This document shows, one piece after another, positions 13,196 through 52,014 of a stretch of 64,000 nt of DNA. The notes beneath the pieces are model-generated. The model did no database searches and had not been told where the DNA came from. It was given only the letters and a program-made list of their open reading frames with translations. The DNA is taken from contig CALRAL010000001.1 in assembly GCA_943350875.1 (NCBI GenBank), positions 68,992 through 132,991 on the forward strand. The letters run 5' to 3'. Numbering within the stretch: the stretch's first letter is position 1; each line of letters starts with the position of its first letter. Origin of the DNA: Candidatus Nomurabacteria bacterium. GTDB taxonomy: Bacteria > Patescibacteriota > Minisyncoccia > Phycocordibacterales > UBA9973. A program made the position numbers and the translations under genes.

Positions 13196-13475
13196 AAATG
13201 ATTTTTAAACAAAAATTCCGCCAAAATGGCGGACTATAGGTCTGGGTGTTGCTTTGACTTACGTCTCCACAGTGTTATCCCAAATCCGCTGATAAATATA
13301 AACTTATTTTTATACTACTACATATTGGTAGAGATTGCAAGGGAATTTAGAGAAGGAAAAACCAAAGGCAGCGGTGAGGATTTAAACTCTTTACTTTTTA
13401 TGTAAATAAGGTATTATTAGAACAAACAAATAAACCTACATTTTGTAGGAGTCTGTTTTTTGAAAGGATAATATT

Positions 13476-13759: not shown

Positions 13760-14425
13760 TTGTTCCTTTTTTCCAAAAAATTTGCTATACTATATACAAT
13801 GATAATCACATATTTTGGCAAACAATTTTTCAAGATTGGGCAAGGGGATATGACTATCGCTTTTAACCCTGTCAGTAAAGCTTCAAAAACAGGCGTGTCA
13901 ACCCATTTCGGGGCAGATATAGCCCTCGTGACCACAAACCATCCTGACTATAACGGCGTAGAACAGCTCTCGCATGGAGACAGAGAGCCTTTTTGTGTGA
14001 CGGGCCCAGGGGATTACGAGATTAAAGAAATTTTCATTAAAGGTTTGGCGTCTGGCGGGGTGATTGATGGTAAAAAATACATCAATACGATTTACTCGCT
14101 GGCTATCGACGGGATAAATATCGTTTTTCTAGGAGCCTTGTCTGATCCTGAATTTACCAAAGAAGCAGGCGAGGCCATAGATAGCGTAGATATACTTTTT
14201 GTGCCGGTGGGTGATAAGGGCTTACTGGACGCGAAATCTTCTGCTAAACTAGTATCATCTATCGAGCCAAAAATAATTATCCCGATGGATTATGATAGCG
14301 CATCTCTCAAAGCGTTCTTGAAAGAGATGGGGGAAGAAGGGGCCGAAGTAGTGGATAAATTAACATTGAAAAGGAAAGATTTAGAAGGTAAAGAAGGGGA
14401 AATAATAGTTTTATCAGCGATTTAA
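13760..14425 (+). CDS. Putative MBL-fold (UPF0173-like) metal-dependent hydrolase; the start is probably internal (~13850)
   Basis: DIALVTTNHPDYNG resembles a degenerate HxHxDH motif; the call is weak. Confidence 0.35.
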   Translation: MFLFSKKFAILYTMIITYFGKQFFKIGQGDMTIAFNPVSKASKTGVSTHFGADIALVTTNHPDYNGVEQLSHGDREPFCVTGPGDYEIKEIFIKGLASGGVIDGKKYINTIYSLAIDGINIVFLGALSDPEFTKEAGEAIDSVDILFVPVGDKGLLDAKSSAKLVSSIEPKIIIPMDYDSASLKAFLKEMGEEGAEVVDKLTLKRKDLEGKEGEIIVLSAI

Positions 14426-14429
14426 TTAT

Positions 14430-14678
14430 ATGAAAAAAGTAATTCATTATTTAAGGAAGCAACCAGAGCAAACAAGAAAGCATATTTTGCATATTTCGAT
14501 CGGGGCTATCACGGTCATTATGGTGGTGCTTTGGGGGTACAGTTTAGCTAAGAGCTTCAGTGGTCCGGAAGTAAAAGCAAAACTACAAAATGATCTGAAG
14601 CCATTTTCTGTATTAAAAGATAATATCACAAATGGTTATAATAATATTTCTGGATCAGTCAATCGATCAACCCAATAA
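14430..14678 (+). CDS. Small membrane protein
   Basis: One TM (ISIGAITVIMVVLWGY) after a basic N-terminus. Confidence 0.4.
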   Translation: MKKVIHYLRKQPEQTRKHILHISIGAITVIMVVLWGYSLAKSFSGPEVKAKLQNDLKPFSVLKDNITNGYNNISGSVNRSTQ

Positions 14679-19693: not shown

Positions 19694-20704
19694 ATGCAAA
19701 AAAAACTGCCAAAATTATTTATTTTTGTTCTAATATTACAAACTATTTTTTTTACCAGGGTTTTTGCGATTCAAACTGAGAATCCTGCCACTCCAGCTTT
19801 GATTGTAAATACTTTTGGCTATTCGGTATTGGGCACGAATTCTTTTAGGCTCGAAGGTACTTATGATGGCAATGTAAATAAAAGAGAGCTCACATATTAT
19901 TTTGAATATGAGACACAAAAGCAAGGATTGCGTGGAGATGGTCTGCATACATACATAGAGAATTCAAAAACGATTCCCATAGTTCAACATCTTTGTTCTA
20001 TAAGTGTGATATGTGACAAGGGACATATTACAGATCATTTTGAGACCACTATCAATCTACTTGATGGCAAGACTTATCGTTTTAGAGCAGTAGCGTATTT
20101 TAATGGTCACGGAGCAGAGCAAAAGTTCTACGGGCAGTGGCTGATATTGACCACTAACCAAGCATTTTTCGGTGGCAATGGCGTCTTATTAACTCCTCCC
20201 TATACTGTAAACAGCAATAACACAGCTGTGCCTTTTACAGGTATAAATTCAACAAATAATAATCCTACTTATAATCCCCTAAATACTGGTCGTTTAAATC
20301 CTACGATTGAATTTAATCCATATCTAGGCGGTACAGGAAATACAAATTCAGATACACCAGTCAAAGGTAATGGTTTGGTGCATTGTGGCAAATCTAATGT
20401 CGACAGTGCGGGTAATCCTGTCACTGCAGATACAGCAGAATGTGGCTTTAATGACATATTTGTGCTCATCAATAACATCTTACATTTTATACTTTTTATC
20501 ATAGCTATACCCATCTCTGCTATTATGTTTGCTTATGCAGGATTTCTGTATCTGACCTCGGGCGGAGGAGAGCAAGTCAGCAAAGCCAAGGGGATATTTA
20601 GCGGGGTGGCGACAGGGCTTGCTATAGCGGCGGGAGCTTGGCTCATAATACATAGCATATTATTACTTTTAGGATATCAAGGTGAATGGTTTGGCTTACA
20701 GTAA
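19694..20704 (+). CDS. Secreted protein with a C-terminal VirB2/TrbC-like two-helix pilin-type domain
   Basis: Signal peptide. The C-terminus (IPISAIMFAYAGFLYLTSGGGEQVSKAKGIFSGVATGLAIAAGAWLII) has the same two-TM plus charged-loop plan as the four small genes downstream. Confidence 0.45.
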   Translation: MQKKLPKLFIFVLILQTIFFTRVFAIQTENPATPALIVNTFGYSVLGTNSFRLEGTYDGNVNKRELTYYFEYETQKQGLRGDGLHTYIENSKTIPIVQHLCSISVICDKGHITDHFETTINLLDGKTYRFRAVAYFNGHGAEQKFYGQWLILTTNQAFFGGNGVLLTPPYTVNSNNTAVPFTGINSTNNNPTYNPLNTGRLNPTIEFNPYLGGTGNTNSDTPVKGNGLVHCGKSNVDSAGNPVTADTAECGFNDIFVLINNILHFILFIIAIPISAIMFAYAGFLYLTSGGGEQVSKAKGIFSGVATGLAIAAGAWLIIHSILLLLGYQGEWFGLQ

Positions 20705-20782
20705 ACCCCACCTGGCCTCCCCTTGTCAGGGGAGGAAAAATAGGTAGTCCCCCTGACAAGGGGGATTTAGGGGGTTAGATTT
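20705..20782. repeat. GC-rich nested-hairpin element, family C, intergenic
   Basis: ctccccttgtcaggggag ... tccccctgacaaggggga ... ttagggggttag; a second copy at 36786-36858 is ~85% identical. Confidence 0.8.
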
Positions 20783-20816
20783 TGCTAAAAATTTTAGTTA
20801 GTATTATAATTAAAGT

Positions 20817-21179
20817 ATGAATTTTATCAAAAATCTTTTCAAAAGAATAAACATAATCGCCCTCATCCTTTTTTTGCCGCTTTTTTCTGTTTCTGCAGAA
20901 TGTGCTGATAAAACAAAAGTTTGTAATCCAATAGGAGCTACTGATATAAATGGATTGATCAAAGACATCTTGATCGGAGTGATAAAGATCAGCATCCCTG
21001 TCATAGCGCTGGCTGTCATATATTCTGGCTTTCTCTTTGTGTCTGCCAGAGGTAGTACGGAAACTTTAGATAAAGCGAAAAAGACTTTGCTTTATACCCT
21101 CATCGGCTCGGCTTTACTACTAGGATCTTGGGCCATAGCGCAACTTATATCTAACACAGTATTAGCGTTACAAATATGA
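20817..21179 (+). CDS. VirB2/TrbC-like pilin-type small membrane protein 1
   Basis: 120 aa: signal peptide, Cys pair, TM1, charged loop (SARGSTETLDKAKK), TM2. Confidence 0.45.
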   Translation: MNFIKNLFKRINIIALILFLPLFSVSAECADKTKVCNPIGATDINGLIKDILIGVIKISIPVIALAVIYSGFLFVSARGSTETLDKAKKTLLYTLIGSALLLGSWAIAQLISNTVLALQI

Positions 21180-21610
21180 AAAAACTAATAAAAACAAAAT
21201 ATCTAGGTTTGACTGCAGGGTTACTTTTAATAATGCCAAATGTTTCCTTTGCAGCTGGTTGCACTCTTCCAGATAATAGTCAGACGAAGATAGCTGATGT
21301 TTTAGATTATGGCACTTGCTTGATCAGTAGCTCTGTTATACCGCTCATTATGTCTTTGGCTACAGCTTCATTTATCTGGGGAGTGGTGCAATTTGTTATA
21401 AATGGCGCTGAGGATACAGAAAAGCGGGAAAAGGGTAAGATGTTTATGATCTGGGGAATATTAGCCTTGACGGTGATGGTGGGCGTGTGGGGGCTGGTGT
21501 CTATCGTAGGGCATACTTTTGGGATAACAAATGTGATCCCGCAAACTGTAAATAATAGTAATTCCGGAACACCTCCACATGTATTGTATGGAGGCGATAA
21601 TGGTGCATAG
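21176..21610 (+). CDS. VirB2/TrbC-like pilin-type small membrane protein 2
   Basis: 144 aa with the same plan; shared KxxMIWGIxxLTVMVGVWGLVSIVGHTFGI block. Confidence 0.45.
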   Translation: MKKLIKTKYLGLTAGLLLIMPNVSFAAGCTLPDNSQTKIADVLDYGTCLISSSVIPLIMSLATASFIWGVVQFVINGAEDTEKREKGKMFMIWGILALTVMVGVWGLVSIVGHTFGITNVIPQTVNNSNSGTPPHVLYGGDNGA

Positions 21611-21673
21611 ATAATTAACACTGTCTATACACTTGCTTTGTTATTTGTGATATAATAGATTATTATTATAAAT

Positions 21674-21706
21674 TTCCGCCAGAGGCGGATCAGCCTTTGG
21701 CTGAAT
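21674..21706 (+). repeat. Two-hairpin GC-rich motif, family D (CCGCC-AGA-GGCGG / CAGCC-TTT-GGCTG)
   Basis: ttccgccagaggcggatcagcctttggctgaa. The copy at 51961-51992 differs only in its loop nucleotides. Confidence 0.7.
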
Positions 21707-21755
21707 TATTAAAATAAAGAGCGTAGCGATTATATTTAAATAAATTTTTTATACT

Positions 21756-21788
21756 CACTTCGTTCGTTAAAAATCAATTATGAAAAAG
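21756..21788 (+). promoter_or_regulatory. Conserved leader/translation-initiation motif TTCGTTCGTTAAAAATCAATT-ATG
   Basis: cacttcgttcgttaaaaatcaattatgaaaaag. A near-identical 24/26 copy precedes typA at 33850-33880. Confidence 0.5.
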
Positions 21789-22175
21789 AAATTAATGTTT
21801 TTGTCGGGAGCTGGTCTAGCATTGGCTCCAATGCTTGCTTTTGCTCAAGCCAATCAGCCACAATGTGGTACACCAGGTTCAGATATAGGTTATATTATTT
21901 GTAAAATTGGTGCTTTACTAAATACAGTTATTCCTATATTGATAACTCTTGGAGTAATTTATTTCATTTGGGGAGTTATTAGCTATGTGGTAGCAGGAGA
22001 TGAAGAGGCTAAAACAGCTGGTAGAGATAAAATGATTTTTGGTATCATTGGTCTAGTAGTGATCATTGGTATGTGGGGCCTTGTAGGTATAGTTTCTAGA
22101 ACTTTTGGGATAGGTCAAGGTGGTGGTAATAATATTATCATTCCTTGTGTTCCTTATGAAGGTCATTCTTGTTAA
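21780..22175 (+). CDS. VirB2/TrbC-like pilin-type small membrane protein 3
   Basis: 131 aa; same SP / Cys / TM-loop-TM plan (DEEAKTAGRDKMIFGIIGLVVIIGMWGLVGIVSRTFGI). Confidence 0.45.
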   Translation: MKKKLMFLSGAGLALAPMLAFAQANQPQCGTPGSDIGYIICKIGALLNTVIPILITLGVIYFIWGVISYVVAGDEEAKTAGRDKMIFGIIGLVVIIGMWGLVGIVSRTFGIGQGGGNNIIIPCVPYEGHSC

Positions 22176-22193
22176 TTAATTCAATCATATAGG

Positions 22194-22538
22194 ATGAATT
22201 TATTCTCTACAAATATAGCTTATGCGAGCGTGGATTCTTTTGTGGCGAATGTTGATCGACTGATCATAAATCCACTTATCATCTTTCTCTTTGCTTTGGC
22301 TTTAGCTTTCTTCCTCTACGGAGTATTTGAATTTATCTTAAATCAAGACAATGACGAGAAGAAAACGCAAGGCAAAAGCCATATGATCTGGGGGATAATA
22401 GGACTGACTATCATGTTTGGAGTGTGGACTATTCTGAATATACTTTTAAGGACTTTTAATATAACAGACATAAATCCAAAGAAAGGAGAAGTAAAATTGA
22501 ATGATTATAGTCCAACTTTAAATGAACTAAAGAATTAA
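22194..22538 (+). CDS. VirB2/TrbC-like pilin-type small membrane protein 4 (no signal peptide)
   Basis: 114 aa; TM-loop-TM with KSHMIWGIIGLTIMFGVWTILNILLRTFNI. Confidence 0.4.
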   Translation: MNLFSTNIAYASVDSFVANVDRLIINPLIIFLFALALAFFLYGVFEFILNQDNDEKKTQGKSHMIWGIIGLTIMFGVWTILNILLRTFNITDINPKKGEVKLNDYSPTLNELKN

Positions 22539-22544
22539 AAAATA

Positions 22545-22577
22545 AAAACCCGAGTATCTCGGGTTTTTATTTTTTGT
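22545..22577. terminator. Bidirectional rho-independent terminator
   Basis: aaaaacccgagtatctcgggtttttatttttt between convergent genes. Confidence 0.85.
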
Positions 22578-27452: not shown

Positions 27453-28232
27453 ATGGATGTAAAAGATTTAAATAAATCACAACTTATATTATTGGCTATA
27501 CTTTTGAGCTTTGTGGTGTCTATAGCTACAGGTATCACGACTGTCACTTTGATGGAGCGCGCTCCAACCTCTATCACTGTACCATTAAACAGGATTGTCA
27601 AACAAACAGTGGAGAAAATACAACAAGTTGAGGGAAAAACTATTACTCAGACTGTCGTGGTGAAAGAAGAAGACTTGGTTGTGGATGCTATTGCGAAAAA
27701 TCAATCAGCGATGTTTGCAATAACTAAAGAATCTGTGGATGCCGACGGTAAGACAATTGAGGTAAATGCTGGGCGGGGCTTTGTAGTTTCAGATGATGGT
27801 GTGGTTGTAGCTGATGCTCTTTTAGTACCAGGGAAGGAAGTATATTATGTGAAGAATGACAGTGGTAAATTTAAAGCGGATTTTGTTTCTCTTGATGACA
27901 AGAATGGATTTTCATTTTTGAAGATAGGTGTGCCGCTAGATGAGAAAAATAAAGTTACCTTTACGGTACCGGCTTTTGGAGATTTGAGTAAAATGAAAGC
28001 CGGACAAAAGATATTAGTTTTAGGGAGTACCATTTTTTCTTTTATATTTGAGGGTAATAAAGATCTTAAAATAAATACTACAAAATCAAATACTGGAGCT
28101 CTTGTTTTGAATTTAGATGGAGAAGCACTCGGCATAGCGTTGTCTAGCGATACTAATTCTTTTGTACCTATAAATGTTATTACTGATGCATTGAAACCAG
28201 CAAGTAAACCGGTGGAAACTCCAAAAGTTTAA
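27453..28232 (+). CDS. Membrane-anchored HtrA/trypsin-fold-like protein with degenerate catalytic triad
   Basis: GRGFVVSDDGVVVADALLV (no His), GFSFLKIG (Asp position), SNTGALVLNLDGEALGIAL (Ser to Thr). Confidence 0.4.
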   Translation: MDVKDLNKSQLILLAILLSFVVSIATGITTVTLMERAPTSITVPLNRIVKQTVEKIQQVEGKTITQTVVVKEEDLVVDAIAKNQSAMFAITKESVDADGKTIEVNAGRGFVVSDDGVVVADALLVPGKEVYYVKNDSGKFKADFVSLDDKNGFSFLKIGVPLDEKNKVTFTVPAFGDLSKMKAGQKILVLGSTIFSFIFEGNKDLKINTTKSNTGALVLNLDGEALGIALSSDTNSFVPINVITDALKPASKPVETPKV

Positions 28233-32979: not shown

Positions 32980-33000
32980 ATAATCTTTTAAAGATTTTAA

Positions 33001-33030
33001 AAAAACGGAAGCAAAGCTTCCGTTTTTTTA
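33001..33030. terminator. Bidirectional rho-independent terminator
   Basis: aaaaacggaagcaaagcttccgttttttta between convergent genes. Confidence 0.85.
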
Positions 33031-33624: not shown

Positions 33625-33791
33625 AGTTTTTATTATACTACCAAATCATTTTTATATATTTATTGTACATTATTTGTATTTTATTATTTTATATGTTATT
33701 ATGTATTGAAGCCTTTGGGATTGATAGGGCTTTTTTGTTTAGAAAATTAATGAACAAAGTGAATGTAATTTTCTTGACCCCAGTTAAATAA

Positions 33792-33880
33792 CTTTTGCTA
33801 GAGCAAAAGTTGCCCGAAGGGCATTTAACAGGGTAAAGATTTTTATTCTCATTTCATTCGTTAAAAATCATTTATGAAAA
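33792..33880 (+). promoter_or_regulatory. typA leader: two small GC hairpins (AGAG loop) plus the TTCATTCGTTAAAAATCATTT-ATG motif
   Basis: cttttgctagagcaaaag, gcccgaagggc, then atttcattcgttaaaaatcatttatg. The architecture parallels 21674-21788. Confidence 0.45.
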
Positions 33881-36785: not shown

Positions 36786-36858
36786 TAACCCCTCCAAACC
36801 TCCCCTTGTCAGGGGAGACAAAAAAGTCCCCCTGATAAGGGGGATTAGGGGGTTGGAG
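36786..36858. repeat. GC-rich nested-hairpin element, family C, second copy
   Basis: cctccccttgtcaggggag...gtccccctgataaggggga...ttagggggttggag. Confidence 0.8.
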
Positions 36859-38252: not shown

Positions 38253-39146
38253 ATGGAAGGATTTTTCTCATCTAAAAACAGTTTCTTGTATATACTTGGT
38301 ATTTTGTTTTTCTTGTTGATTTTTAACTCTTTATTTTTTAATGCTCCAAGATATTTCCCAATAGGGGATATTGTAAATATACAAGAAGGTTCAAGTCTCC
38401 ACCGTATTTCTAAATATCTAAAAGACGAGAAGATAATTGGTTCTAGAATGGCTTTTGAAGCTTTTGTGATTATGTTTGGGGGGGAGAAACATATAGTTCT
38501 AGGAGACTATTTATTTGAAAAGAAAATGCCTGTTTTTGATATAGCTTCGCGTCTTACACATGGATATCACAACTTAGCACCAGTCAAAGTGACTATCCCT
38601 GAGGGTTCAAATAACAAAGAAATAGCTGATATTTTTGGCACTAAATTGTTAAAATTCAATAAAATTAAATTTTTGACTGAGATAAAAGATAAAGAGGGCT
38701 ATCTTTTTCCCGATACTTACTTTTTTTCTACTACAGACACAGAAAAAGAAGTTATAAAAGTTATGAAGGATAATTTTAATAAAAAAGTTCCTCTTGTTTT
38801 TTCTACAATAAACATTAGTGATGTAAAGAAAAAAGATATCATAATAATGGCCTCGATAATAGAACGTGAAGCGGAAGGCGATAATGACAGAGCTATAATT
38901 TCTGGAATTCTTTGGAAAAGATTTAAAAAAGGGATGTTGTTACAAGTAGATGCTGTACCCGAGACATATAAAACAAAAGGATTACCAAAAAATCCTATAT
39001 CTAACCCTGGGCTCGAAGCCATAGAAGCGTCTATTCATCCAAAAGTCTCATCTTATTTTTTCTACTTACATGATAAAGCTGGTGTAGCTCATTATGCTGT
39101 CACTTTTAATGAACATGTTTCAAATAAATTAAAATACTTAAAATGA
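38253..39146 (+). CDS. mltG: Endolytic murein transglycosylase MltG (YceG-like)
   Basis: N-terminal TM; LLQVDAVPETYKTKGLPKNPISNPGLEAIEASIHP. Confidence 0.75.
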   Translation: MEGFFSSKNSFLYILGILFFLLIFNSLFFNAPRYFPIGDIVNIQEGSSLHRISKYLKDEKIIGSRMAFEAFVIMFGGEKHIVLGDYLFEKKMPVFDIASRLTHGYHNLAPVKVTIPEGSNNKEIADIFGTKLLKFNKIKFLTEIKDKEGYLFPDTYFFSTTDTEKEVIKVMKDNFNKKVPLVFSTINISDVKKKDIIIMASIIEREAEGDNDRAIISGILWKRFKKGMLLQVDAVPETYKTKGLPKNPISNPGLEAIEASIHPKVSSYFFYLHDKAGVAHYAVTFNEHVSNKLKYLK

Positions 39147-40342
39147 AAATAAAAAAAACTGTTTTTGTGGGGATGTCAGGGGGAGTAGATAGTGCTGTGT
39201 CAGCAACTTTACTTAAAGAACAAGGGTATGATGTAGTGGGTGTTTTCATCCGTACTTGGCATCCAGAATTTTTAAAATGCAATGAAGAAGAGGAGAGGCT
39301 AGATGCTATGCGTGTGGCAGCATTTTTAGATATTCCTTTTTTGACTTTTGATTTTGAGAAAGTGTACAAGAAAGAAGTGGCTGATTATATGATTTCTGAA
39401 TATAAGGCTGGTAGGACTCCGAATCCAGATGTGATGTGCAACAAAGAAGTGAAATTCGGCGCATTTCTCAAAAAAGTTGTTTCGATGGGTGCGGATTATG
39501 TGGCGACTGGGCATTATGCACAAACCAATAAATACACAGGGTTCCCCTGTGTTACACAGGGGAACCCTGTGTATTTAAACCTCGGGAAGCTCAAAATAGA
39601 AAGGGAAAACTTTGGTTTGTTAAAAGGAAATGATGTTACAAAAGATCAGAGTTATTTTCTTTGGATTTTAAAACAAGAACAATTAAAAAAGATTTTGTTT
39701 CCAGTTGGACATTTAAAGAAAACAGAAGTTCGTAAATTAGCCAAGAAATTAAATTTACCTGTGGCAGAGAAAAAGGATAGTCAAGGGATTTGTTTTTTGG
39801 GAGCTATTGATTTGAAAGAATTTTTAAAACATTACATAAAAGAAAAAAAAGGTGAGGTATCTAATACAGAAGGTGAGAAGATTGGATTTCATGACGGGGT
39901 AGTTTTTAATACTTTAGGAGAAAGACATGGTTTTACTATTACCAAGAAAAGTCCTAATGATGGGCCTTATTATGTAGTAGGTAAAGACTTAAAGAAGAAT
40001 ATTTTATACGTGAGTCAAGACAAAAACCATCTTGCAAAGAGTACGGATATTTTTTTACTAAAAAATTCCTCGTGCTCACGCCAGTCGCTCTCGCAAGTCT
40101 CTTTGCAAGATGGTTTTTGTCTTTGTTTAAGAGGCACTAATTGGATTTCAAAGATCCCAGAATTAAATAAAGATTACACTGCACAGATTCGTTATCATGG
40201 TAGTTTCTTACCTTGTAGAATAAAAGTTCTAAAAGGCGACAAAGCTGAGATTCACTTTAAAGAAAATGTGTTAGTTGCCCCTGGTCAGTCTTGTGTAGTT
40301 TATGATAAAGATGTTGTTCTTGGGGGAGGAATAGTTGTATAA
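39143..40342 (+). CDS. mnmA: tRNA 2-thiouridylase MnmA (contains an in-frame palindromic insert)
   Basis: VFVGMSGGVDSAVSA PP-loop, GHYAQ, KDQSYFL. Confidence 0.88.
   Translation: MKIKKTVFVGMSGGVDSAVSATLLKEQGYDVVGVFIRTWHPEFLKCNEEEERLDAMRVAAFLDIPFLTFDFEKVYKKEVADYMISEYKAGRTPNPDVMCNKEVKFGAFLKKVVSMGADYVATGHYAQTNKYTGFPCVTQGNPVYLNLGKLKIERENFGLLKGNDVTKDQSYFLWILKQEQLKKILFPVGHLKKTEVRKLAKKLNLPVAEKKDSQGICFLGAIDLKEFLKHYIKEKKGEVSNTEGEKIGFHDGVVFNTLGERHGFTITKKSPNDGPYYVVGKDLKKNILYVSQDKNHLAKSTDIFLLKNSSCSRQSLSQVSLQDGFCLCLRGTNWISKIPELNKDYTAQIRYHGSFLPCRIKVLKGDKAEIHFKENVLVAPGQSCVVYDKDVVLGGGIVV
39533..39575 (+). repeat. 43-nt near-perfect palindrome, family B, in frame inside mnmA. It encodes YTGFPCVTQGNPVY.
   Basis: ATACACAGGGTTCCCCTGTGT-T-ACACAGGGGAACCCTGTGTAT. 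Confidence 0.85.
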
Positions 40343-51599: not shown

Positions 51600-51956
51600 A
51601 TGAAAACAATTGAACCCAAAATAATAGACGCAAAAGGAAAAACTCTCGGTAGGGTGGCTAGTGCTACAGCTGTGTCTTTGATGGGTAAGGACAAGGCTTC
51701 ATATGAGCGTCACACTTATACTTTTTCTCCAGTTAAAGTTTTAAATGTTTCAAAGATAAGCATCACACCAAAGAAGCTAGGAAGTATTTATCACACCAGA
51801 TATTCAGGTATTCCAGGCGGACTACGTGTGACCAAAGGTGCCGAGACAGCTCTCAAAAAAGGATTAAAAGAATTGTTAAGACTTTCAGTTTACAATATGC
51901 TTCCAGGAAATAAATTACGAAGAGAGATGATGAAACACTTAATAATAAATGATTAA
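51600..51956 (+). CDS. rplM: 50S ribosomal protein L13
   Basis: L13-family pattern; positioned immediately upstream of rpsI. Confidence 0.8.
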   Translation: MKTIEPKIIDAKGKTLGRVASATAVSLMGKDKASYERHTYTFSPVKVLNVSKISITPKKLGSIYHTRYSGIPGGLRVTKGAETALKKGLKELLRLSVYNMLPGNKLRREMMKHLIIND

Positions 51957-51960
51957 AATT

Positions 51961-51992
51961 TTCCGCCCAAGGCGGATCAGCCTAGGGCTGAA
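51961..51992 (+). repeat. Two-hairpin GC-rich motif, family D, second copy (CCGCC-CAA-GGCGG / CAGCC-TAG-GGCTG)
   Basis: ttccgcccaaggcggatcagcctagggctgaa between rplM and rpsI. Confidence 0.7.
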
Positions 51993-52014
51993 AAAATAGA
52001 AGATTAAAAATACT

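Follow-up and report, generated by a model that had tools for sequence, protein, structure and literature searches.

The double-hairpin elements of Allomyces (Paquin, Laforest & Lang 2000) and the GC clusters of yeast mitochondria have been described together as "repetitive hairpin-forming elements" (PMC2800124). Reviews portray these organellar elements as hairpin units rich in GC, with stems that are conserved and loops that vary, which are present in some and absent from other relatives and which also occur inside rRNA and protein genes; no flanking duplications are reported for the Allomyces elements (PMC2800124, PMC4478555). In bacteria, the repetitive extragenic palindromic (REP) sequences and REPINs are nonautonomous, mostly intergenic palindromes of 20 to 40 nt that are mobilized by RAYT (TnpA_REP), a single-strand-specific enzyme that recognizes their hairpins, with secondary effects on mRNA being possible; they carry a GTAG-type head, are extragenic and species or genus specific, and flank the RAYT gene (PMC3116915, PMC6006769). 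Here, we describe a 30-nt double-hairpin unit, referred to as M, that is present in two copies in a 64,000-nt stretch of contig CALRAL010000001.1 from a Candidatus Nomurabacteria bacterium (the window). With a probability of roughly 80%, these hairpin pairs are copies of a very small, nonautonomous, apparently mobile ("selfish") DNA element, whose closest analogues are the organellar ones.

The window is AT-rich (GC content of 0.32 to 0.38). M has the form TCCGCC-N3-GGCGGA joined directly to TCAGCC-N3-GGCTGA, a pattern that was found at two sites on the + strand of the window and had no matches in dinucleotide-preserving shuffles of the window. The covariance model of the M family gave full matches in the window only at these two sites:

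21675-21704, + strand: M copy 1, loops AGA and TTT (53.7 bits with the covariance model), located 64 nt past the stop codon of the T4SS-pilin-like gene 21176-21610 and 75 nt ahead of the gene 21780-22175

51962-51991, + strand: M copy 2, loops CAA and TAG, located 5 nt past the rplM stop codon and 23 nt before the rpsI ATG

Both the existence of the two hairpin pairs and the combination of identical stems with two different loops (AGA/TTT versus CAA/TAG) had been pointed out in a first-pass annotation of this DNA, and both observations stand. Among the families of Rfam 15, only tRNAs passed the gathering scores; at both copies of M and at a single hairpin at 13217-13233 (see below), searches at the gathering threshold and in permissive mode returned best E values of at least 0.077 with scores far under gathering, and no family, ribosomal-protein leaders and attenuators included, could be assigned. 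Neither window copy of M is followed by a U-tract, A-rich sequence being found on the + strand instead, so M is not an intrinsic terminator; a terminator scan found only a weak − strand match, at copy 1. Copy 1 lies inside an array of five consecutive T4SS-pilin/TrbC-like open reading frames (ORFs) at 19694-22538, most of which score at or just under the Pfam cutoffs.

The two adjoining 6-bp GC-rich hairpins of M have 3-nt loops, which gives a total of exactly 30 nt, and differ from each other by a single base pair (C-G versus A-T). Because of this one-base-pair difference, the reverse complement of M has the same architecture with the hairpins swapped, and the orientation of M is set only by the C/A difference; the whole 30-mer is near-palindromic about GGATCA, with a central GATC. 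As RNA, M folds into either two hairpins or one long hairpin, with a predicted energy of −18 to −19.5 kcal/mol (z of about −4 to −4.8; about −4.4 to −4.8 for copy 1), and the fold of lowest energy under DNA parameters is the one with two hairpins. The family was gathered with an exact-stem pattern that left the loops free. In 19 distinct variant copies that fall outside that pattern, 24 double substitutions are compensatory, 4 pairs are G-T, and 11 are mismatched, and the inner GCC/GGC pairs are nearly invariant. The pairing of both stems is thus kept by compensatory change, which indicates that pairing within each short hairpin is under selection. The first-pass annotation had proposed selection on stem structure and had named covariation as the sign to look for; that proposal is supported both by the compensatory changes in the variants and by stems kept with changed loops at an orthologous site.

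The loops follow the consensus N-R-A (loop 1) and T-N-N (loop 2). Their outer positions (position 1 of loop 1 and position 3 of loop 2) show Watson-Crick covariation (64 cases versus 46 expected; 0 of 2,000 shuffles), part of which may reflect the shared descent of a C..A/T..G subfamily, and the middle loop positions show no pairing signal. For a closing stem formed by the flanks, which would make a three-way junction, no general covariation was found at −1/+1 or −2/+2; inverted-repeat flanks with a stem of at least 5 bp are enriched approximately 3-fold (12.4% versus 4.2%).

An exact-stem scan of one genome per species revealed at least 120 loci with M, against a chance expectation of ∼0.04 matches in 596 Gb for 24 fixed bases. 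Judging from the record titles of the matches listed, these loci fall into ∼13 phylum-level groups: Patescibacteria/Candidate Phyla Radiation (CPR) (49 loci), Gammaproteobacteria/Pseudomonadota (14), Omnitrophota (11), Ignavibacteria (10), Bacteroidota and Planctomycetota (5 each), Deltaproteobacteria/Thermodesulfobacteriota and Binatia (4 each), Bdellovibrionota and Verrucomicrobiota/PVC (3 each), Stahlbacteria (2), and Elusimicrobia and Dehalococcoidia (1 each), with 8 loci unclassified. Among the same matches, several contigs per metagenome-assembled genome (MAG) carry M, and M was also found in 11 viral-contig stretches. The loci vary in GC content from 0.31 to 0.62, and the ORFs inspected beside M look like ordinary housekeeping genes, so mis-binning cannot account for the breadth of the distribution. 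The further instances that the first-pass annotation had suggested searching for are very numerous across genomes, and such a large number of dispersed instances points to a repeat class and not to a leader.

The flanks of M are unrelated to each other save for their ends, whose consensus reads ..A.ATT(T/C)^ before M and ^(A/G)(A/G)(A/C) behind it, with TT^AA at the insertion point. M is found in both orientations relative to the neighboring genes; between codirectional genes, the sense orientation is somewhat more frequent (19 versus 9), and GC skew reveals a weak strand bias (66 versus 44; p = 0.045). When the 1,265 ORFs of 131 loci were clustered all against all, no recurrent gene family, transposase-like or other, emerged near M. 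In these 131 loci, no RAYT-like gene was seen, no recombinase or reverse transcriptase gene recurs near M, and no TnpA gene was seen among the clustered ORFs. Nor was an autonomous parent element found between paired copies of M in L096, L021, and L059 (L numbers designate compared loci or contigs outside the window), where the ORFs are of the ordinary housekeeping type. No description of the M sequence or of such a bacterial element was found in the literature searched. Some local sequence contexts recur: in Ignavibacteria and phage contigs (L023, L041, L073, L121, L125, L127, and L129/L130), M lies within arrays of the short word (G/A)AAAGT(A); a similar array, without M, is found between pilin genes in L083 (7030-7075); and at other loci, other short words occur on both sides of M, for example, ACTTTAGGCACTT in L019 and L029 and TTAGAATTT in L010, L072, and L076.

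Comparison of orthologous sites shows M coming and going. Two contigs align with the window over kilobases, L018 at ∼77% nucleotide identity and L083, from a Nomurabacteria relative, at 70 to 72%. In L018, M is located ∼150 nt upstream of rpsA with alignable sequence on both sides, and the window has no M at that position. In L083, M is found, reverse-complemented, at the extreme end of a gene for a metallo-β-lactamase (MBL)-fold protein, whose stop codon it newly supplies; the window has no M at 14418-14430. Conversely, the pilin spacer that holds copy 1 in the window is without M in L083.

Exact 30-nt insertions of M were also found in tRNA-derived sequences, in either orientation, in the D-, anticodon, and T-loops (with the insertion points ..TAGTT^CAAC.. 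and ..TAGCT^CAGT.. in the D-loop and ..GGTTC^GA.. in the T-loop). In-silico removal of M restores a complete tRNA-Ser in L022, the single case recovered by ARAGORN; the other tRNA-like hosts of M are partial tRNA copies. No target-site duplication directly flanks M at the tRNA-derived junctions. M equals 10 codons, with two of the three frames open on each strand, and in-frame copies were found in long ORFs for DnaG, PyrK, a PilM-like protein, and others, where they add the residues PPKADQPxAE or QPxADPPxAE. Compared with the solved structure 2au3, the M-bearing DnaG has exactly 10 extra residues (PPKADQPQAE), and the M-bearing PyrK has a similar insertion relative to the structure 1ep3. A tblastn search of the window with the DnaG, PilM-like, PyrK, and ligase-like proteins that carry M detected no homologues. 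M is inserted as an exact 30-nt unit, without a directly flanking duplication and with a preference for T-T^A-A-like sites; intergenic DNA and redundant tRNA fragments tolerate it, as do proteins when the frame is kept.

The spread of M would depend on single-stranded nucleic acid in which its hairpins can form. Movement probably takes place in trans, through either a single-strand DNA enzyme that is structure specific and of the HUH/Y1 type, as in the REP/RAYT and IS200/IS605 systems, or replication template switching. Both window copies would then be passengers in spacers, and any effect on expression, such as 3' stabilization of the rplM mRNA, would be secondary.

The rplM-rpsI spacer, which holds copy 2, was compared in 80 metagenomic loci that encode S9 relatives. 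M fills this spacer in the window and in L134, L154, and L155. The spacer has no M in L132, whose S9 scores best among the relatives (76% identity), nor does it in 8 or more further relatives. In relatives, rplM ends in ..TTAAAAATAGAAGATTAA. In the window, M separates two versions of this end:

51936-51961, + strand: the present rplM 3' end cacTTAATAATAAATGATTAA (stop codon at 51954-51956) plus aatTT, the upstream tandem target copy

51992-52007, + strand: AAAAATAGAAGATTAA, the displaced ancestral rplM 3' end (..KIED-stop in relatives), now noncoding and directly 3' of M

The displaced AAAAATAGAAGATTAA is identical to the true rplM end of L147 and L150. The order cacTTAATAATAAATGATTAA, aatTT-M-AAAAATAGAAGATTAA implies that M went into the TT^AA of a second copy of the last ∼20 nt of rplM; copy 2 entered the 3' end of rplM, and the gene is now closed by a tandem duplicate of this end. 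The final 150 nt of rplM share 71 to 78% identity (50 to 66% at third codon positions) among the window, L134, L154, and L155. In the same four loci, the 16 nt after M are identical (16/16) and the M loops agree at 2 to 5 of 6 positions, whereas the stems agree at 24 of 24 positions in pairwise comparisons among the window, L134, and L154 and at 22 of 24 in the pairs with L155. Translational read-through or bypass of M in rplM was considered and rejected, as the frame across M varies, with one extra A in L134 and L155. A conserved hairpin, CCTGTCCCGTA..TACGGGACA, is found ∼30 to 65 nt past the rplM stop codon in the ∼100-nt rplM-rpsI spacers of L154, L155, and L133, and is thus common to relatives with M (L154 and L155) and without it (L133).

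Duplicated targets are not limited to this site. When the empty site was rebuilt from the 10 nt that flank M on either side, another occurrence of it with no more than 4 mismatches lay within 300 nt in 11.7% of 137 cases versus 0.3% of 603 controls, and a partial self-copy accompanies 11 of the 15 tRNAs with M within 250 nt versus 4 of the 43 tRNAs without M nearby. In every case, the gene runs on into the intact target copy. The duplication could come from the insertion process or from later hairpin-induced slippage, or it could be a rare rescue made visible by selection. Arrays of partial tRNAs beside an intact tRNA were seen in L038 (3560-4400) and L085 (5700-6320); their loops are interrupted by M or by a compensated variant of it (CCAGCC/GGCTGG or CTCGCC/GGCGAG), and one tRNA fragment in L038 holds a different insertion of roughly 66 nt.

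Several points weigh against the interpretation of M as a mobile element. The word "mobile" rests on comparative patterns and not on an observed mechanism, because no transposase or other mobilizing gene was found; the uniformity of the sequence is partly built in by the exact-stem pattern; and the genome matches listed are all MAGs or single-cell assemblies. In addition, the conservation of the stems and the 16-mer at the rplM-rpsI site fits selection at the level of the host, gene conversion between copies, or a recent transfer of the whole ∼57-nt block better than a decaying passenger. For this last reason, a host-useful, REP-like RNA or DNA structure (a stabilizer of mRNA 3' ends, a site of RNase processing, or an insulator that separates cistrons), maintained by selection at particular places such as rplM-rpsI, is kept as a live and nonexclusive rival, compatible with a mobile origin although rather unlikely as the explanation of M. 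Perfect conservation next to synonymous sites near saturation and varying loops, the position of copy 2 directly 3' of the rplM stop codon, the excess of the sense orientation between codirectional genes, and the stable predicted RNA fold all speak for such a use. However, copies of M lie in either orientation and are also found in coding sequence, tRNA fragments, and phage contigs; its neighbors are unrelated genes; the lack of a U-tract removes intrinsic termination from the list of possible uses; and close relatives such as L132 do without M at the very same site. It is improbable that M is instead a double-stranded site for a dimeric protein, with a 12-6-12 layout (TCCGCCnnAGGC / GGATCA / GCCTnnGGCTGA) like that of the tyrosine-recombinase cores dif, lox, and FRT. 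The near-twofold symmetry with its central GATC, the covarying outer loop positions, and the symmetric TT^AA flank preference would fit such a site, but compensatory changes preserve intrastrand pairing, which a protein reading the double strand does not require, the middle loop positions are unpaired, the C/A asymmetry is a mismatch in the long palindrome, and no recombinase gene recurs nearby. Equally doubtful is spread through an RNA intermediate and reverse transcription, which has been proposed for the mitochondrial double-hairpin elements (PMC2800124, PMC4478555) and would, by analogy with them, agree with the lack of directly flanking duplications, the G-T pairs tolerated in variants, and the frequent location of M in transcribed spacers; neither a recurring reverse transcriptase nor poly(A) or any other hallmark of retro-insertion accompanies the copies, and their orientation relative to transcription goes both ways. 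Finally, an artefact of assembly, binning, or contamination is hardly credible: the origin of the genome matches and the proximity of several of them to contig ends would be in its favor, but the copies come from independent projects, including contigs of 0.8 to 2.8 Mb, are surrounded by ordinary housekeeping genes at widely different local GC contents, and are set in otherwise alignable orthologous sequence.

The first-pass annotation had joined the hairpins and the start-codon context TTCGTTCGTTAAAAATCA-ATG into one recurring structured 5' leader, Shine-Dalgarno (SD)-independent enhancer, or attenuator. Copy 1 does precede, by 75 nt, a gene that shares its start context with typA, and SD motifs are nearly absent from the window, but this reading is very improbable. 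M is dispersed in both orientations, including in tRNA-derived and coding sequences, and comes and goes at orthologous sites independently of its neighbors; no start motif follows copy 2, and no M precedes typA; and, if the −10-like box described below marks the start of transcription, M would lie upstream of the transcript. The start context is a separate, window-wide feature of promoters or of initiation. The two start contexts themselves are real (TTCGTTCGTTAAAAATCAATT-ATG at 21759-21782 and TTCATTCGTTAAAAATCATTT-ATG at 33853-33876) and are the only two copies in the window, and the similarity upstream of the pilin-like gene and typA extends over 34 nt with 4 mismatches (21745-21779 versus 33840-33873):

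21745-21782, + strand: start context TTTTTATACTCACTTCGTTCGTTAAAAATCAATT-ATG of the pilin-like gene, with TAAAAA at −12 to −7

33840-33876, + strand: second copy, the start context of typA, identical at 30 of 34 positions and located within ∼125 nt that are absent from relatives

In relatives, the typA ATG is found 5 to 25 nt past a conserved module that consists of TATGTTATTAT.., a hairpin, and GGGCTTTTTTG; in the window, ∼125 extra nt separate this TATGTTATTAT...GGGCTTTTTTG module (33692-33745) from the typA ATG. The extra sequence holds the 34-nt segment whose other copy precedes the pilin-like gene 21780 and two small hairpins (33791-33810 and 33812-33822), whose presence ahead of typA had been noted correctly and which have no match to the covariance model of M. 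Upstream of typA in four relatives with 88 to 89% identical TypA, unrelated sequence was found instead of the extended motif; the long pilin/typA similarity is specific to this genome.

The general start context was derived from the 53 ATG-start genes in the window, compared with all other ATGs. A TAnnnT hexamer (at least 5 of 6 matches to TATAAT) ends exactly 6 nt before the ATG in 11 of the 53 genes versus 0.57 expected; T occupies position −12 in 30 genes and position −1 in 39, A occupies position −11 in 33, and neither G nor C is ever found at position −7. An SD-like 4-mer at −20 to −4 was found in a single gene, with ∼5 expected, which agrees with the scarcity of SD motifs remarked on earlier. 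In ..GTTAAAAATCA(A/T)TT-ATG, TAAAAA fills positions −12 to −7, the seat of the window-wide −10-like box (T−12 A−11 ... W−7), and TTAAAAATCAWTT-ATG is one instance of the general SD-less start context of the window, unrelated to M. The −10-like box also precedes genes that start just 3 nt from the previous stop codon, such as the one at 27453. Leaderless mRNAs are established in Actinobacteria and other groups, and the combination of a −10-like box with rare SD motifs suggests widespread leaderless or internally promoted transcripts here as well. The suggestion is drawn from geometry, the spacing being the one that a start of transcription at the A of the ATG would require, and the context may alternatively represent an AU-rich, SD-independent ribosome-loading signal; a literature search on leaderless transcription in CPR yielded no usable statement.

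The first-pass annotation had also listed a lone copy of the first hairpin at 13224-13241. Such a hairpin exists, but at slightly different coordinates and outside the M family:

13217-13233, − strand: 7-bp hairpin TCCGCCA-AAA-TGGCGGA, 21 nt upstream of the rpsA ATG (13195) and followed by ATTTTTGTTT

The covariance model of M gives this hairpin just 14.5 bits, and it is not a copy of M. In the terminator scan, it is followed by a T-run on the rpsA strand, which makes the GC hairpin and U-tract of an intrinsic terminator on the − strand, and it looks like a terminator. Its ortholog in L018, TCCGCT-ATAA-AGCGGA, occupies the same position and shows a compensatory change. The hairpin ends a noncoding stretch at 13234-13330 (− strand) that is kept in L018 (e.g., GGATTTGGG(A/G)TAAC and CCTA(A/T)A); this stretch, which has no Rfam match, could be a small RNA gene or the rpsA leader.

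Further hairpins were noted in the window. A second, longer two-hairpin repeat family is found at 20706-20778 and 36789-36858, in spacers just upstream of genes; it reads AACCCC..CCTCCCCT-TGTC-AGGGGAG(G)..TCCCCCT-GA(C/T)A-AGGGGGA..GGGGGTT, and its outer inverted repeats could close a three-way junction. CCCCT/AGGGG-rich hairpins that resemble it occur in L018, and CCCTCC-rich sequences flank M in L048 and L113. The ORF 39143-40342 contains a perfect 23-bp inverted repeat with a 3-nt loop (39529-39577; TAAATACACAGGGTTCCCCTGTG-TTA-CACAGGGGAACCCTGTGTATTTA), each arm of which is a small palindrome. Two long AT-flanked hairpins between convergent genes (22537-22575 and 32998-33030), with A runs on one side and T runs on the other, look like bidirectional terminators.

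The distribution of M poses a puzzle: a noncoding unit of 30 nt keeps its stems across Patescibacteria, Omnitrophota, Planctomycetota, Ignavibacteria, and Gammaproteobacteria. Either one mobilizing activity is common to, or passes between, uncultured bacteria and phages that occur together or a general process of replication or repair propagates the structure. M adds 10 residues to normally essential proteins such as DnaG and is linked with partial duplications of tRNA genes and gene ends; as several matches lie near contig ends, it may also break assemblies. For annotation, the hairpins in the window should not be called a leader or a riboswitch-like element. Separately, the window cleanly exemplifies starts that have a −10-like box and no SD motif, which bears on the initiation of transcription and translation in streamlined CPR bacteria. 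A bolder version of the mobile-element interpretation, in which M represents a hitherto undescribed class of ultrasmall bacterial mobile elements, with near-identical stems in at least 13 phylum-level groups of mostly uncultured bacteria and in some of their phages, a cryptic shared or travelling machinery, an insertion mode that gives no directly flanking duplication but typically an intact target copy in tandem with the interrupted one, and perhaps some fixed copies co-opted by their hosts, is offered tentatively, with the odds somewhat against it.

Among the bacterial repeats, REP/RAYT, the Rickettsia palindromic elements, and the cyanobacterial SDRs share some features with M, which fails the defining features of each. 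M resembles REPs in size and dispersal (30 nt, with two copies in 64 kb) but lacks the GTAG tetranucleotide (it starts with TCCGCC after the flank ..ATTT^), is not strictly extragenic, as shown by the in-frame copies in DnaG, PyrK, and the PilM-like protein, and crosses phyla. MITEs, or miniature inverted-repeat transposable elements, have terminal inverted repeats and a directly flanking duplication and are usually longer than 50 bp; the exact 30-nt insertions of M in tRNA-derived sequence have no target-site duplication at their junctions. With IS200/IS605-type elements, M shares the lack of a target duplication and the dependence on hairpins and, with the palindrome-associated elements derived from them, also the insertion next to a short preferred sequence. 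These derived elements have subterminal hairpins with guide sequences and longer ends, and their insertion is strand specific, 3' of a defined tetra- or pentanucleotide; M is flush with its hairpins and quasi-symmetric, is preferentially flanked by TT (5') and AA (3'), and has only a weak strand bias (66 versus 44). The Rickettsia palindromic elements are mentioned in PMC1779305; those that Ogata et al. are said to have described in 2000 are reportedly ∼100 to 150 bp long and restricted to Rickettsia, whereas M has 30 nt and is taxonomically very broad. The SDR4-6 repeats attributed to Elhai et al. are reported to be mobile 21- to 27-nt repeats in hairpin contexts, restricted to cyanobacteria of the Nostocales type and not known to have a transposase; their sequences differ from that of M.

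The organellar elements come closest. Like them, M is a GC-rich double hairpin in AT-rich DNA whose stems are kept and whose loops vary, encodes no protein, is carried by some relatives and missing from others, and is found in spacers, in structural RNA genes, and, in frame, in protein genes. Yeast GC clusters such as GC42 have putative AG target duplications (PMC4478555), for which M has no equivalent. The organellar elements are lineage specific, whereas M is found in bacterial and phage contigs, with the same stems in ∼13 phylum-level groups and a fixed length of 30 nt.

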